From Mobula hypostoma (taxonomy: Eukaryota): DNA of 64,000 nt. The DNA is taken from NCBI RefSeq assembly GCF_963921235.1, contig NC_086097.1, positions 158,412,001 through 158,476,000 of the forward strand, written 5' to 3'. The translations under genes were made by a program, and so were the position numbers. Below the pieces are notes generated by a model that worked only from the letters and a program-made list of their open reading frames with translations, was not told where the DNA came from and ran no database searches. This document shows, one piece after another, positions 11,139 to 49,300 of the stretch; positions within the stretch are counted from its first letter, which is position 1, and each line of letters opens with the position of its first letter.

Positions 11139-11443
11139 AGGCACGTGGTTAAGGCATTGGACTAGCGACCTGAAGGTCGTGAGTTCAAGCCCAGCCGAGG
11201 CAACGTGTTGTGTCCTTGAGCAAGGCACTTAATCACACATTGCTCTGCAACGACACTGGTGCCAAGCTGTATGGGTCCTAATGCCCTTCCCTTGGACAAC
11301 ATTGGTGTCGTGGAGAGGGGAGACTTGCAGCATGGGCAACTGCTGGTCTTCCATACAATCTTCCCCAGGCCTGCGCCCTGGAGAGTGAAGACTTTCCAGG
11401 TGTAGATCCATGGTCTCGCAAGACTAACAGATGCCTTAACTTA
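11139..11443 (+). mobile_element. tRNA-derived SINE with a CORE-like central block
   Basis: Box A tggttaaggc, box B gttcaagc, tgtgtccttgagcaaggcacttaa; 11-bp TSD atatctatttt (11128-11138 and 11444-11454). Confidence 0.88.
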
Positions 11444-12004
11444 ATATCTATTTTGAAATTTATTGTACAGTCGTCCCTCCGTATCCGCGGTTCCGCATCC
11501 GCGGATTCAACCAACCATGGATCGGGATCGGAAAAAACCTAGAAGTTCTCTCTCCAGCACTTGTTGTTTGAGCATTGTTCGCCTCGCGTCTCGTTCGTTC
11601 GCTACTTGTGTTGTGAGCGAGAGGAAGGAGTTTAAGGCTACTAAACTCTGGCTGTCTAGCTATGTAAAGTGCTACAGCCTCAAGAACTTAAAGATCACGG
11701 GAGCATCAGCATCGGCTGAAGCCGAGGCGACATCAGCATTCCCAGAAGAGCTACGATGGTTGCATCTGTATTGAACATGTACAGACTTTTTTTTTCTTGT
11801 CATTATTCCCTAAACAATACAGTATAACAACTATTTACATAGCATTTACATTGTATTAGGTATTATAAGTAATCTAGAGATGATTTAAAGTGTACGGGAG
11901 GATGTGCATAGGTTATATGCAAATACTATGCCATTTTATATATGGGACTTGAGCATCTGCAGAATTTGGTATCCGTGGGGAGTCCTGGAACCAAAACCCT
12001 ATGG

Positions 12005-12076
12005 ATAAGAGTGGTGCAGCGGAAGCGTGCTGGGCCCATAACCCAGAGGTCAATGGATCGAAACCATCCTCTGCTA
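12005..12076 (+). pseudogene. Initiator tRNA-Met (CAT) copy, lacking the correct 5' end
   Basis: Matches vertebrate tRNA-iMet AGAGTGG(C>T)GCAGCGGAAGCGTGCTGGGCCCATAACCCAGAGGTC(G>A)ATGGATCGAAACCATCCTCTGCTA; positions 2-3 mismatched; no CCA; followed by TGTTTT. Confidence 0.93.
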
Positions 12077-12144
12077 TGTTTTCTGTTAGTGGCAGCGCTT
12101 ATGCATCCTCGTGTTTTAAAACACAAGTGTGTCATATTATATTT

Positions 12145-12205
12145 GGCACAGCCAAGAAGGGCCAAAAGGCCTGTTTCTGTGCTGTAGTTTCTATGGTTTC
12201 TATGT
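12145..12205 (+). mobile_element. CR1 3' tail fused downstream of the tRNA-iMet copy
   Basis: gggccaaaaggcctgtttctgtgctgtagtttctatggtttctatgt; same tail type as 33386-33440 (minus) and 49660-49706. Confidence 0.85.
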
Positions 12206-14249
12206 GGAAAGCCGACTGTAGTTATGTTTTGCACTGTACTGCAACAGCTAAATTACAAATTTCACATCGTATAAATCAGCAATAGTGAACCTGATTCTGA
12301 TTATGATTCTGATAGGAGTGAACTAGATAGGTTTTCACAGTCAATTGATAACTACATGATGATAGTAGCTGATACCAGCTTTAAATACGGAATGTAAGTT
12401 CCTTGTTGCAGTTGGATTCAAACTCTTCCCTCCTGGAGTCCAGTCCTGGGATGATTGTCCAACTACTTAACTGCTCTGTGATCTACCCTGTTTATAAGTA
12501 TTAAATAAAAACAGATGGTAATCAGTAATGAGAAGGGAGAGGACAACTGGTTAAGTCCAGTCTTTTGGGAACTATTTGTAAAGTGGTATCACCAGCATGC
12601 AGCTGTGGTACGTAGTTGGTATACAAACACCATGGTGCAAGAACAGAGCTGTGGACCAAACTGTAGATTGGTGGATTAATACCATCTGACATTAGCTGAC
12701 CACATTCTTTTAGAAACCTCTTAAGTTGCAATTAAACACTTTATAATGTGTATTCTTGAAGAAAAAAATAAGAAATGATAGTAATTGCAGCAGCAAAAGG
12801 AAAGAAAATATGCATTATTTCACAAAGCAAATATAGACCTTGATGGTGATTAGAGCTTGCCTCTTATGTACACTTTAATTTCTGGATGAAGAGTTAATGT
12901 GCTATTAGATTAATGTACATCTGTAGAAACCTTCAAGGAGGATCTGCATATGCTTTCTGGCAGGGTGCTGTAATAATCTTAGCATGGACTCTGCAGCCGA
13001 TGGAATAAATTGCAATTAATTTTAACTTGGTTATGATGAAGCATACTGCTACTGGTTTTTGACATTAAATAATAATAAAGATGTCTAAAGACTGTTGGTA
13101 ATGCTTTGTGAAACACAAGATCCACCCACCACCCATGATGCTCATAGTCTTCACCCTGAATGGATCTATACCCTTTGAGGAAGGCAATTTGACTTTCATA
13201 TCTCCTCACTTCTGTCTCTGCAGGAGGTTAATGAATGATTTTAAGGAAATCAGCACAGGATCTTCCTTTACTAATTTAATGAGTAAGATGCCATGATTGT
13301 ACAATGTAGAACAGGAACAGGATATCAGGCCAAGTACAGCATTTTAGTATCATTTCAAGTGCGGATTCTATGGGTTTTATAAATGTTTGCTCATTCCTGA
13401 TACTTGCAGCTCCTCCTTCATGACTTGAAGTCACTGTCTGTGACTGTTGTATTTATTTACCAGTCTTCCCTGCCGGATTGCAGATCAATCCAGTGACAGT
13501 TTCTTATGTATAAATCTGGCTGTGTGGGGTGTCAACGATATCTATCTGTGTTGTGCCAAGCCCAAAGCTGTAATCACACAACAGCAGTTGGACGGCACTT
13601 TCCAATGTGAATCATTGTGTTACGATCAGAAATGGGAATAAATTCTGATTTTCACATTGGACCCTCATAGTCTTGGCTATTTTTGAGCAGTAGTTCTTGA
13701 CTGTTGTCTGAGGACTTGGAACACAGAAAAGGTCTTTCAACCCATATCTGTGCCGATTGCAATGCCAAATGAAACTACTCCCATCTGCCTGCACACTCAT
13801 ATCCCTCCATTCTCTGTATGTTCATGAGTCTGTCTGAATACCTCTTAAATGCCACTATCTTTTTTCTTTACCATTACTGCTGGCAGTCTATTCCAGGCAA
13901 CTATGTTCTGTAATTAAAAAAAAAGTTAACCCAAACATCTCCTTTAAACTTCTTTCCCCTCTCACTTTAATGTTAGGCCATTCTTGTGGTCATTATGAAA
14001 GACATGCTTACGTTTAGTAAATCGTGATTTCTGGACAGATGATGCAGATTGACTCGATTTTGAAATGTTAACAAGAAAATGAGAACAACGGTGACATGGA
14101 AGTGAGCACAGTCAAGTAAGTCTCACGCGTAATTGAGAAAGCAACAAGCAGTGTATCTTTTGAAAAAACAGATTGACTTTTGGGGGTGAAATTTCAAGAC
14201 AGTAGAATAACTCAGAAAGTGAAAGAAAAATGACAATGCTAAAAAAAAA

Positions 14250-44543: not shown

Positions 44544-46379
44544 CTAGCGGAAGTTAGAGAAGTCAATGTTCATGCCATCAGGTTGGAGGCTACCCAGACG
44601 GAATATAAGGTGTTGTTCCTCCAACCTGAGTGTGGCTTCATCTTTACAGTAGAGGAGGCTATGGATAGACATGTCAGAATGGGAATGGGATGTGGAATTA
44701 AAATGTGTGGCCACTGGGAGATCCTGCTTTCTCTGGCGGACAGAGCGTAGATGTTCAGCAAAGCGGTCTCCCAGTCTGCGTCGGGTCTCACCAATATATA
44801 AAAGGCCACATCGGGAGCACCGGACGCAGTATATCACCCCAGTCGACTCACAGATGAAGTGATGCCTCACCTGGAAGGACTGTTTGGGGCCCTGAATGGT
44901 GGTGAGGGAGGAAGTGTAAGGGCATGTGTAGCACTTGTTCCGCTTACACGGATAAGTGCCAGGAGGGAGATCAGTGGGGAGGGATGGGGGGGACGAATGG
45001 ACAAGGGAGTTGTGTAGGGAGTGATCCCTGCGGAATGCAGAGAGAGGGGGGGAGGGAAAGATGTGCTTAGTGGTGGGATCCCGTTGGAGGTGGCGGAAGT
45101 TACGGAGAATAATATGTTGGACCCGGAGGCTGGTGGGGTGGTAGGTGAGGACCAGGGGAACCCTATTCCTAGTGGGGTGGTGGGAGGATGGAGTGAGAGC
45201 AGATGTACGTGAAATGGAGGAGATGCGTTTAAGAGCAGAGTTGATAGTGGAGGAAGGGAAGCCCCTTTCTTTCAAAAATGAAGACATCTCCCTCGTCCTA
45301 GAATGAAAAGCCTCATCCTGAGAGCAGATGCGGCGGAGACGGAGGAATTGCGAGAAGGGGATGGCGTTTTTGCAAGAGACAGGGTGAGAAGAGGAATAGT
45401 CCAGATAGCTGTGAGAGTCAGTAGGCTTATAGTAGACATCAGTGGATAAGCTGTCTCCAGAGACAGAGACAGAAAGATCTAGAAAGGGGAGGGAGGTGTC
45501 GGAAATGGACCAGGTAAACTTGAGGGCAGGGTGAAAGTTGGAGGCAAAGTTAATAAAGTCAACGAGTTCTGCATGCGTGCAGGAAGCAGCGCCAATGCAG
45601 TCGTCGATATAGCGAAGGAAAAGTGGGGGACAGATACCAGAATAGGCACGGAACATAGATTGTTCCACAAACCCAACAAAAAGGCAGGCATAGCTAGGAC
45701 CCATACGGGTGCCCATAGCTACACCTTTAGTTTGGAGGAAATGGGAGGAGCAAAAGGAGAAATTATTAAGAGTAAGGACTAATTCCGCTAGACGGAGCAG
45801 AGTGGTGGTAGAGGGGAACTGATTAGGTCTGGAATCCAAAAAGAAGCGTAGAGCTTTGAGACCTTCCTGATGGGGGATGGAAGTATATAAGGACTGGACA
45901 TCCATGGTGAAAATAAAGCGGTGGGGGCCAGGGAACTTAAAATCATCGAAAAGTTTAAGAGCGTGAGAAGTGTCACGAACATAGGTCGGAAGGGATTGAA
46001 CAAGGGGTGATAAAACAGTGTCGAGGTATGCAGAAACGAGTTCGGTGGGGCAGGAGCAAGCTGAAACAATAGGTCGGCCAGGACAGGCAGATTTGTGGAT
46101 CTTGGGTAGGAGGTAGAAACGGGAAGTGCGGGGTGTGGGAACTATAAGGTTGGTAGCAGTGGATGGGAGATCCCCTGAGCGGATAAAGTCGTTGATAGTG
46201 TGGGAGACAATGGCCTGGTGCTCCTTGGTGGGGTCACGATCGAGGGGTAAATAAGAGGAGGTATCCGCGAGTTGTCGCTGTGCCTCGGCAAGGTAGAGGT
46301 CAGTACGCCAGACTACAACAGCACCCCCCTTATCAGCGGGTTTAATAATAAGGTTAGGATTAGTGCGGAGGGAGTGGAG
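44544..46379 (-). CDS. PLE reverse transcriptase + GIY-YIG endonuclease (open frame, N-terminus missing)
   Basis: Stop-free frame read by hand from 46379: KPADKG, LPKIHK, RPIVS, MDVQSLYT, GVAMG, RYIDD, Cys linker CKRNKCYTC, VIY..YIGET. Confidence 0.92.
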   Translation of the reverse strand, partial: LHSLRTNPNLIIKPADKGGAVVVWRTDLYLAEAQRQLADTSSYLPLDRDPTKEHQAIVSHTINDFIRSGDLPSTATNLIVPTPRTSRFYLLPKIHKSACPGRPIVSACSCPTELVSAYLDTVLSPLVQSLPTYVRDTSHALKLFDDFKFPGPHRFIFTMDVQSLYTSIPHQEGLKALRFFLDSRPNQFPSTTTLLRLAELVLTLNNFSFCSSHFLQTKGVAMGTRMGPSYACLFVGFVEQSMFRAYSGICPPLFLRYIDDCIGAASCTHAELVDFINFASNFHPALKFTWSISDTSLPFLDLSVSVSGDSLSTDVYYKPTDSHSYLDYSSSHPVSCKNAIPFSQFLRLRRICSQDEAFHSRTREMSSFLKERGFPSSTINSALKRISSISRTSALTPSSHHPTRNRVPLVLTYHPTSLRVQHIILRNFRHLQRDPTTKHIFPSPPLSAFRRDHSLHNSLVHSSPPSLPTDLPPGTYPCKRNKCYTCPYTSSLTTIQGPKQSFQVRHHFICESTGVIYCVRCSRCGLLYIGETRRRLGDRFAEHLRSVRQRKQDLPVATHFNSTSHSHSDMSIHSLLYCKDEATLRLEEQHLIFRLGSLQPDGMNIDFSNFR

Positions 46380-49300
46380 TGTCCCTCTGAATATACCTCT
46401 TGCCCATCCTCTGGGTCACCCCCCCCCCCGTCTTTCTCCCTAGGCCTCCTGTCCCATGATCCTCTCGTATCCCCTTTTGCCTATCACTTGTCCAGCTCTC
46501 GGCTCTATCCCTCCCCCTCCTGTCTTCTCCTATCATTTTGCATCTCCCCCTCCCCCTCCAGCTTTCAAATCCCTTACTCACTCTTCCTTCAGTTAGTCCT
46601 GGCAAAGGTAGTAATCTCGGGATTACTGCCTGTGCTACGTGACAGTGAGAGTAGGAATGCAGTGAGGTGGAGGATAAATGCATGGCTGAGGGATTGGAGC
46701 AGGGGGCAGGGATTCAAGTTTTAGGATCATTGGGACCTCTTTTGGTGCAGATGTGACATGTACAAAAAGGACGGGTTACACTTGAATCCTAGGGGGACCA
46801 ATATCCTGGCGGGGAGATTTGTGAGGGCTACTGAGGTGACTTTAAACTAGAATGGTTGGGGGGTGGGAATCAAATTAAAGAGATGAGGAGAGAGGAGGTT
46901 AGTTCACAACAGGGGGATGGGAACCAGTGCAGAGAGACAGAGGGGTGTAAAATGAGGGTAGAAGCAAAAAGTAGTAAGGAGAAAAGTCAAAGTGGCAGGC
47001 CGGCAAATCCAGGGCAAAAATCAAAAAGGGCCACTTTTCAACATAATTGTATAAGTCTAAGAGTGTTGTAAAAGCGAGCCTGAAGGCTTTGTGTGTCAAT
47101 GCAAGGAGCATTCGTAACAAGGTGGATGAATTAAAAGTGCAGATTGTTATTAATGAATATGATATAGTTGGGATCACAGAGACATGGCTCCAGGGTGACC
47201 AAGGATAGGAGCTCAACATTCAGGGATATTCAGTATTCAGGAGGGATAGACATGAAAGAAAAGGAGGTGGGGTAGCATTGCTGGTTAGAGAGGAGATTCA
47301 CGCAATAGAAAGGAAGGACATTAGCCGGGAGGATGTGGAATCGATATGAGTAGAGCTGCATAACACTAAGGGGCAGAAAACGCTGGTGGGAGTTGTGTAC
47401 AGGCCACCTAACAGTAATAGTGAGGTTGGGGATGGTATTAAACAGGAAATTCGAAATGCGTGCAATAAAGGAACAGCATTTATAATGAATGACTTCAATC
47501 TACATATAGATTAGGTGAACCAAATTGGTAAGGGTGCTGAGGAGGAGGATTTCTTGGAATGTATGCGGGATGGTTTTTTGAACCAACATGTCGAAGAACC
47601 AACTAGAGAGCAGGCTATTCCAGACTGGGTATTGAGCAATGAGGAAGGGTTAATTAGCAATCATGTTGTGAGAGGCCCCTTGGTTAAGAGTGACCATAAT
47701 ATGGTGGAATTCTTCATTAAGATGGAGAGTGACATAGTTAATTCAGAAACAAAGATTCTGAACTTAAAGAAGGGTAACTTTGAAGGTATGAGACGTGAAT
47801 TAGCTAAGATAGACTGGCAAATGACACTTAAAGGGTTGACGGTGGATATGCAATGGCAAGCATTTAAAGATGGCATGAATGAACTACAACAATTGTTCCT
47901 CCCAGTTTGGCAAAAGAAGGTAGTGCACATGTGGCTGACAAGGGAAATTAGGGATAGTATCAATTCCAAAGAAGAACCATACAAATTAGCCAGAAAAAGT
48001 GGCTCACCTGAGGACTGGGAGAAATTCAGAGTCCAGCAGAGGGTCCAGTGAGATGGAGGAACTGAGGGAAATACATGTTAGTAGGGAAGTGGTGTTAGGT
48101 AAATTGAAGGGATTAAAGGCAGATAAATCCCCAGGGCCAGATGGTCTGCATCCCAGAGTACTTAAGGAAGTAGCCCAAGAATTAGTGGATGCATTAGTGA
48201 TAATTTTTCAAAATTCTTTAGATTCTGGACTAGTTCCTGAGGATTGGAGGGTGGCTAATGTAACCCCGCTTTTTAAAAAAGGAGGGAGAGAGAAACCGGG
48301 GAATTATTGACTGGTTAGCCTAACATTGGTGGTGGGGAAAATGCTAGAGTCAGTTATCAAAGATGTGATAACAGCACATTTGGAAAGTGGTGAAATCATC
48401 GAACAAAGTCAGCATGGATTTGTGAAAGGAAAATCATGTCTGATGAATCTCATAGAATTTTTTGAGGATATAACTGGTGGAGTGGATAGGGGAGAACCAG
48501 TGGATGTGGTATATTTGGATTTTCAAAAGGCTTTTGACAAGGTGCCACACGGGAGATTACTGTGCAAACTTAAAGCACATGGCATTGGGGTAAGGTATTG
48601 ATGTGGATAGAGAATTGGTTGGCAGACAGGAAGCAAAGAGTGGGAATAAACGGGACCTTTTCAGAATGGTAGGCAGTGACTGGTGGGGTACTGCAAGGCT
48701 CAGTGCTGGGACCCCAATTGTTTACAATATATATTAATGACTTAGATAAGGGAATTAAATGCAGCATCTCCAAGTTTGCGGATGACCCGAAGCTGGGCGG
48801 CAGTGTTAGCTGTGAGGAGGATGCTAAGAGGATGCAGGGTGACTTGGATAGGTTAGGTGAGTGGGCAAATTCATGGCAGATGCAATTTAATGTGGATAAA
48901 TGTGAGGTTATCCACTTTGGTGGCAAAAACAGGAAAACAGATTATTATCTGAATGGTGGCCGATTAGGAAACGGGGAGGTGCAACGAGACCTGGGTGTCA
49001 TTGTGCACCAGTCATTGAAAGTGGGCATACAGGTACAACAGGCGGTGAAAAAGGCGAATGGTATGCTGGCATTCATAGCAAGAGGATTCGAGTACAGGAG
49101 CAGGGAGGTACTACTGCAGTTGTAGAAGGTCTTGGTGAGACCACACCTGGAGTATTGTGTGCAGTTTTGGTCCCCTAATCTGAGGAAAGACATCCTTGCC
49201 ATAGAGGGAGTACAAAGAAGGTTGACCAGATTGATTCCTGGGATGGCAGGACTTTCATATGATGAAAGACTGGATCGACTAGGCTTATACTTGTTGGAAT

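Follow-up and report, generated by a model that had tools for sequence, protein, structure and literature searches.

An apparent single-copy pre-tRNA-iMet/CR1 chimera inside a MITE of Mobula hypostoma

Is a short unit with a tRNA-iMet head and a CR1-like tail, lodged within a MITE of Mobula hypostoma, one member of a SINE family, or does it stand alone? The standard proposal for SINE origins has a stringent LINE switch templates to a tRNA, a step usually reconstructed in retrospect from families that have already amplified. A sequence-only reading of the window (by which we mean the whole stretch of DNA analysed, 64,000 nt of contig NC_086097.1) had offered two options, a chimera between CR1 RNA and an unprocessed pre-tRNA-iMet or a young iMet-headed SINE family mobilised by CR1. 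With a length of 197 nt (12008-12204, with a 1-nt ambiguity at its right edge), the insert lies on C1, distant from tRNA clusters, and consists of a tRNA-iMet copy, a gene trailer, a single A and a CR1-type LINE end, with tRNA head and LINE tail in the same sense and all of it within the right TIR of the MITE. Its parts and surroundings are as follows:

11466..12007, + strand: host MITE, left TIR and body (from MITE copies; inverted repeat I12)
12008..12076, + strand: tRNA-iMet copy (positions 4-72, without CCA; box A and box B regions kept; RF00005; 67/69 identical to genes L002-L006)
12077..12140, + strand: 64-nt 3' trailer native to iMet genes from iMet-Asn pairs (from alignment to L002-L006)
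12079-12082 and 12114-12117, + strand: T4 runs inside the trailer
12141..12141, + strand: junction base A (the three closest source genes and most LINE copies have G here)
12142..12204, + strand: final 63 nt of a young CR1-type LINE, with a predicted hairpin and two TTTCTATG-type units (100% identical to dispersed copies)
12205..12220, + strand: remainder of the MITE right TIR, including the TA duplication (aligned with the 16 bases after GGATA in 29 further copies, departing from their majority at 3)

The head matches the Rfam tRNA family at 12005-12076 (32.3 bits against a gathering threshold of 29), and ARAGORN at default calls no tRNA at the insert because tRNA positions 1-3 are absent. 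Set against authentic iMet genes from this genome, 12008-12076 carries two changes in 69 positions (12015 and 12052), both of them at CpG, and no CCA follows, so the description of an almost intact tRNA-iMet was borne out. What had been called a unique spacer of about 68 nt is in fact 64 nt long and, when compared with true tRNA-iMet trailers as the sequence-only reading had proposed, proves to match them up to 12140. Because this middle segment matches the native trailer of parent genes, we read it as tRNA gene flank and not as a SINE body. An origin of the head from a mature tRNA or an LTR primer is ruled out by the missing CCA and by the native trailer that comes next.

The closest parents are three loci on C83 (L002-L004), which align to query positions 1-133 at 95% and which are intact tRNA-iMet genes with native leaders and, as judged by ARAGORN, a tRNA-Asn gene or its decayed remnant about 130 nt downstream. 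Over 12008-12140 the insert is identical to L002 and L003 at 127/133 positions (six differences each) and differs from L004 at 7/133; for the trailer, identity is 60/64 to L002 and L003, 59/64 to L004 and 48/64 to L005/L006, and the trailers of L002-L004 differ from each other at 1-3 of 64 positions. A genome search with only the trailer gave six candidates, all accounted for by the insert and five true iMet genes, and each of these five trailer-bearing genes runs on in the assembly into native spacer. We note that same-strand tRNA-iMet/tRNA-Asn pairs about 130 nt apart occur in several repeats at L002-L008 (G000:C83 and C82), and that L003, L005 and L006 have no T4 from +42 to the Asn gene, which makes a dicistronic read-through transcript possible. 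About 250 nt upstream of an intact iMet gene at L010 (G000:C80:19665297-19668379) lies a CR1 tail on the opposite strand.

The match to the parent genes breaks sharply at 12008, so that the leader is not carried, and again at 12140, and the 5' end of the insert lies at most 3 nt from the mature tRNA start, as expected of an RNA template. Capture of a DNA fragment would make terminator read-through unnecessary, and about 40% of zebrafish ZfL2-2 inserts are described as having extra 5' nucleotides, largely template jumps (PMC2666801). Against such capture, the fragment is leaderless, in sense orientation and begins within those 3 nt of the mature tRNA 5' end, and tRNA genes presumably make up a tiny fraction of the DNA while tRNA is abundant as RNA; we consider DNA capture quite improbable. 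The trailer carries T4 runs at +3 and +38 from the tRNA end, the next T4 lying at 12227. Since paralogs L005/L006 are without the run at +3, the +38 run may be the usual Pol III stop of this gene family.

The tail was correctly attributed to the 3' end of a CR1-type LINE, although it starts at 12142 and not at about 12145. The segment 12142-12205 is 100% identical to the 3' ends of many dispersed copies, and a 20-nt core of the tail has 8432 exact copies in the genome. Eight long copies of this LINE agree at 94-98% across up to 3.6 kb, their reading frames (four of the five scanned) match GDSL esterase, endonuclease and RT families, and Pfam identifies PF13472, PF14529 and PF00078 on the long copies L133/L134. 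The donor LINE has an esterase ORF1 and an endonuclease-RT ORF2 and is without poly(A), the combination by which the CR1 clade is recognised. An esterase ORF1 is known from CR1 and some L2 elements (PMC13343379), and the tail repeat unit agrees at 7/8 positions with the amniote CR1 octamer quoted in PMC5729268. The domains, the microsatellite end and the absence of poly(A) fit a CR1-type donor, with L2 as a possible alternative. A hairpin in the tail is predicted by folding (z -1.25; 32/200 shuffles fold equally well), and neither it nor the trailer (z -0.95) nor the head (z -1.16) folds clearly better than shuffles.

The captured tail is very short, with 18 nt upstream of the core motif; among the first 30 CR1 copies along C1, all 30 have at least 23 nt there (23, 57, 97 nt or longer), and 10 extend beyond 1500 nt. 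L013 (1500-1566, G000:C18:73801755) is a CR1 copy cut at the same point as the tail of the chimera, with A-rich bases and no tRNA upstream. Stopping may be favoured immediately beyond the hairpin, a hint that is biased since L013 was picked by its similarity to the query. Two truncated CR1 copies, L163 and L174, carry tail-like TTTCTAT letters before their 5' junctions, possibly extra nucleotides or an adjacent older tail. Elsewhere in the window, an uninterrupted 623-codon frame (44544-46415, - strand) with weak matches to RT and GIY-YIG, both below Pfam cut-offs, sits between esterase-like and RT-like LINE frames on the other strand; the RT/GIY-YIG pairing hints at a Penelope-like element nested in a CR1.

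The identification of the host as a MITE also held. The host (11466-12220) is a TA-flanked, non-autonomous DNA transposon, putatively a Tigger-like member of Tc1/mariner. A genome search gave 1281 candidates, the best 40 of which were scored and, the window copy apart, stand at 89-93%; two copies of the same length, L062 and L066, are 89.9% and 88.8% identical to it over 542 nt. In 29 other copies the TIR is uninterrupted across the insertion site, and the base after GGATA in these copies is C in 23, T in four and A in two (one A out of register). T12205 is most likely a MITE base that has undergone CpG decay, though it is also compatible with the tail, and on this basis we delimit the insert as 12008-12204. 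Removing 12008-12205, as the sequence-only reading had done to restore the TIR, does close the MITE but leaves it one base short. Around the insert as delimited here the MITE closes with no base duplicated and none lost (a TSD of 0 bp, with the same 1-nt ambiguity). A hidden TSD was considered and rejected, as TA or TATG registers add bases that are absent from the 29 other copies.

Between trailer and tail there is not a single base of the MITE, and two separate insertions are on that ground very unlikely; the rate at which a LINE would hit the exact bond between them is about 2.4e-6 per base (8432/3.48e9, counting exact-core copies). With the exact closure of the MITE as well, we reject two independent insertions, and the earlier suggestion that the unit arrived as one is supported. 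With the pre-insertion state read from paralogous MITE copies, the tRNA part and the LINE part appear to have been inserted together into one target.

Could the unit nevertheless belong to a family? Its head-middle-tail layout, Pol III boxes and LINE hairpin would suit a young tRNA-iMet-headed SINE mobilised by CR1, and our searches of its own genome (3.48 Gb, 200 contigs) give lower bounds. Counting the hits that retain head, spacer and tail, as had been proposed, one of the best-scored 40 of 436 candidates in a whole-unit search spans 198 nt, and this is the unit in the window itself; 13 of the 40 comprise the head with or without the trailer, and 26 only the last 64-66 nt. An exact iMet anticodon-arm motif occurs at 17 places and is followed by the LINE tail at one (the insert), and a genome pattern search for iMet followed by the tail within 500 nt gave a single match. 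A second copy of the unit was not found in four independent genome searches of the assembly. As a control, a search of the same type with a neighbouring 300-nt element upstream of the MITE gave 3847 candidates, with 39 other best-scored copies at 95-97%. This young, high-copy element (11142-11440, + strand; about 300 nt), whose 5' end is tRNA-like and which lies immediately upstream of the MITE, has the look of a genuine SINE family.

Raw-data contigs from other sequencing runs bear on the same question. At least half of the query words are contained in 8/24 runs, from two organisms, and no RNA run appears among those listed; four runs were compared over window positions 12077-13600, among which organisms C and E do not reach the insertion site. 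Organism A is possibly the assembly's own sample, which would make it no independent source; there the trailer-tail junction is covered, with no mismatch, by a 72-nt contig whose depth (8.6) equals that of the flank (8.53), indicating one locus. For organism B, a contig that begins within the tail (12180) continues through the TIR and flank with 20 differences in 1438, which puts the tail at the same site in a second species, about 1.4% diverged. The contigs of A and B carry only 25-28 letters on the tail side, below a 31-letter bridging rule, and no organism B contig across the trailer-tail junction was among the matches listed. With one copy in four genome searches, the trailer at six places of which five are genes, and single-locus junction depth, we reject the young SINE family, which we regard as extremely improbable.

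By the definition given in SINEBase (PMC3531059), the insert is short (197 nt, below 1 kb) and interspersed and exceeds 60% tRNA identity over 60 nt (67/69), but it is present in one copy, which falls short on copy number. As to a SINE-RNA template, there is no master among the five trailer-bearing genes, and junction depth is that of a single locus, although a lost or unassembled master is possible. The term proto-SINE, used in the earlier reading, suits the architecture only; both trailer T4 runs lie upstream of the tail. A Pol III transcript of the insert would likely stop mostly at these runs before reaching the tail, and because they precede the tail the insert is most likely dead as a SINE master, a plausible explanation of the absent amplification. 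An internal oligo-T has been used likewise to exclude Pol III transcription of SINEU (PMC4494074). The insert has no 3' A-tract and no 9-15 bp TSD and so lacks the marks of an L1-type processed pseudogene, and it has those of a small-RNA/LINE chimera, namely an RNA copy 5' of a truncated LINE with an intact 3' end, in the same sense. Taken together, these observations indicate that the unit is a single-copy pre-tRNA/CR1 chimera, a neutral insertion and not a SINE family. The other option that had been raised, a chimera of CR1 RNA with an unprocessed pre-tRNA-iMet, gains support from the native trailer of identifiable source genes and from the exact fit of the MITE on either side of the unit.

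A related possibility is that a short CR1 had landed downstream of a real iMet gene, at a distance of 64 nt, and that the read-through Pol III transcript of this master locus was mobilised once into the MITE, which would make the insert a first-generation SINE copy. The product would be identical. In organism B the trailer contig has a depth of 117.5 against 8.65 for the flank, so the iMet gene cluster may be larger than assembled, or collapsed (C83 is a 632-kb contig), leaving room for such a locus, and L070 (see below) may be a gene-plus-tail locus of this kind. However, 5/5 trailer-bearing genes run on into native spacer in the assembly, the junction depth in organism A corresponds to one locus, and two rare events would be needed; we think a master locus improbable.

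We suspect instead, with some confidence, that this single-copy join of iMet and 64-nt flank to CR1 arose in one round of target-primed reverse transcription (TPRT) in which the reverse transcriptase switched to a read-through pre-tRNA. In this scheme the endonuclease would nick the right TIR of the MITE, and the reverse transcriptase would prime on the CR1 3' repeats and copy 63-64 nt, just past the hairpin. It would then jump to pre-tRNA-iMet at a point 64 nt beyond the tRNA end, probably adding one base, and copy the pre-tRNA until 3 nt before the mature 5' end, after which the cDNA would be joined blunt to the target. The copy would have drifted neutrally afterwards, with CpG decay and no detectable progeny. 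In support of a template switch, head and trailer match the three C83 genes at 126-127/133 positions and end exactly at both junctions. The insert lacks an A-tract and a long TSD, unlike 11/30 U6 copies in the genome, which makes the tail's own LINE the likely mover, and the unusually short tail resembles that of platypus U6-L2 chimeras (PMC4476161). A switch to tRNA is also the origin proposed for the CR1-mobilised PittSINE (PMC5729268).

Several observations sit less easily with a template switch. The RNA template must cross both T4 runs; Pol III read-through trailers are reported from human cells, and T4 is reported to be a very efficient terminator in vitro (PMC3141230). Nor is the switch point (+64) at the end of a U-tract. 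Blunt joins are a described but minor class of insertions. The insert has no TSD, whereas CR1 TSDs are described as peaking at 3-5 bp (PMC4245944). Our own TSD baseline for this LINE, from a crude and noisy flank test of 19 truncated copies with values for six only, ranges from a 14-nt overlap to a 1-nt gap. No empty MITE allele was seen in the runs compared over 12077-13600, and the pre-insertion state accordingly comes from paralogous MITE copies and not from an orthologous empty site.

The junction base bears on the choice between a switch and a ligation. The A at 12141 is likely untemplated, but it could come from an unassembled paralog, as the more distant paralogs L005/L006 have A there. 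Were a read-through pre-tRNA with a 2',3'-cyclic phosphate first joined, in the manner of RtcB, to a 5'-OH CR1 3' fragment and then inserted by CR1, the same sense-sense product without microhomology would be predicted; RtcB is reported to join U6 to L1 and other RNAs (PMC6789731), and the trailer ends at an internal, non-terminator position, like a nuclease cut. On the other hand, ligation alone does not suffice for an A that is absent from the three closest sources and from most LINE copies, and no join to the tail was found for U6, on which RtcB is demonstrated to act. We consider prior RNA ligation unlikely, if a little less so than a master locus, and note that sequence does not distinguish between a template switch, RNA ligation and a lost master locus.

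Also on the side of a template switch is what is probably a second tRNA/CR1 join, at L070. A tRNA T-loop at most 160 nt upstream of the LINE core was found five times among the 8432 cores, at the insert, L070, L068, L069 and L071; the last three were rejected because there is no Rfam tRNA at the match. L070 (1500-1627, - strand; G000:C45:101311399-101311525) contains a perfect tRNA-Arg(CCT) (67.4 bits) with a 21-nt trailer that ends just past a T-run, followed by a short CR1 3' end with a slight deletion; immediately upstream lies the end of an unrelated repeat. It matches gene L073, 0.68 Mb away, in the last 3 leader bases and 15/18 of the first trailer bases. L070 is probably a second, independent tRNA-Arg/CR1 chimera, but it could equally be a real gene in a tRNA-rich region, with its tRNA unmutated, where a LINE landed at the terminator. 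A looser tRNA pattern upstream of the core, which cannot match the iMet T-loop, gave 56 matches, none of them on C1 or C2 and only L070 looking like a tRNA. An Rfam scan of 20 of 30 extracted looser-pattern loci gave no match, and the remaining 36 matches were judged by eye (first 80 letters) or from earlier Rfam results.

We found no U6/CR1 join at 30 loci examined of 48 scored, nor any genome pattern match, and frequent switching by this LINE is to that extent unsupported. L113 was set aside as a candidate because it sits inside an older LINE with its own A-tract and TSD. Across G000, 11/30 U6 loci (L102-L131) have a 3' A-tract and a 9-14 bp TSD; such copies appear to be L1-type processed pseudogenes, a separate route in a CR1-dominated genome. 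The U6 copy at L121 is 3'-truncated, with an 8-bp TSD.

How does the insert compare with known systems, as far as the published descriptions cited here go? Platypus U6-L2 chimeras and one unconfirmed turkey U6-CR1 chimera likewise have a sense, slightly 5'-truncated small-RNA head on a short stringent-LINE 3' end, small or no TSDs, and an independent origin for each copy (PMC4476161). Their heads are mature RNA ending in a U-tract, whereas that of the insert is pre-tRNA with a 64-nt trailer, its partner is CR1-type and its source genes are identifiable. Human tRNA/L1 chimeras, at 21 loci, resemble the insert in that tRNA sequence entered together with a truncated LINE, and 5' of it, in a single event, but they are mostly antisense tRNA halves with 9-19 bp TSDs, ascribed to twin priming (bioRxiv 10.1101/2025.02.02.635956), while the insert is near-full-length, sense, trailer-bearing and blunt. 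TguSINE1 and PittSINE share with it a tRNA head (tRNA-Ile and tRNA-Asp) on a CR1 hairpin/microsatellite tail, in their case CR1-X; they are amplified families whose founding chimera is inferred, in contrast to the unamplified insert with its iMet head and internal T4 runs, which agrees with the founder depicted for PittSINE (PMC5729268).

V-SINEs have a conserved central domain. HE1, a V-SINE paired with the LINE HER1 in sharks and rays, and SINE2-1_CM, paired with CR1-2_CM, combine a tRNA head and a LINE tail in CR1-rich fish genomes, as the insert does, but are high-copy, and the middle of the insert is a tRNA gene trailer, a distinction drawn from their descriptions (PMC3747384). Within the part of the literature covered, we found no report of an iMet-headed SINE or of a trailer-bearing pre-tRNA/CR1 chimera.

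The insert is thus an unusual form of a known class, the small-RNA/LINE chimeras, and it illustrates the proposed first step of SINE birth with an unamplified product, its parent genes in one genome and a target that can be reconstructed. The donor would be a precursor with flank, and the insert offers a simple origin for unexplained middle regions of SINEs. It is a single neutral insertion without known function, and its weight depends on further cases. We entertain, as a tentative and rather doubtful proposal, that this CR1 lineage repeatedly captures nascent pre-tRNAs (not U6), yielding ready-made head-trailer-tail SINE precursors; the iMet and Arg loci would then be fossils that record how SINEs are born. 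If recurrent capture were true, germline Pol III would read through towards a dicistronic iMet-Asn precursor, the bodies of SINEs could start as tRNA-gene trailers with traceable parent genes, and internal T4 runs would filter which founders amplify.
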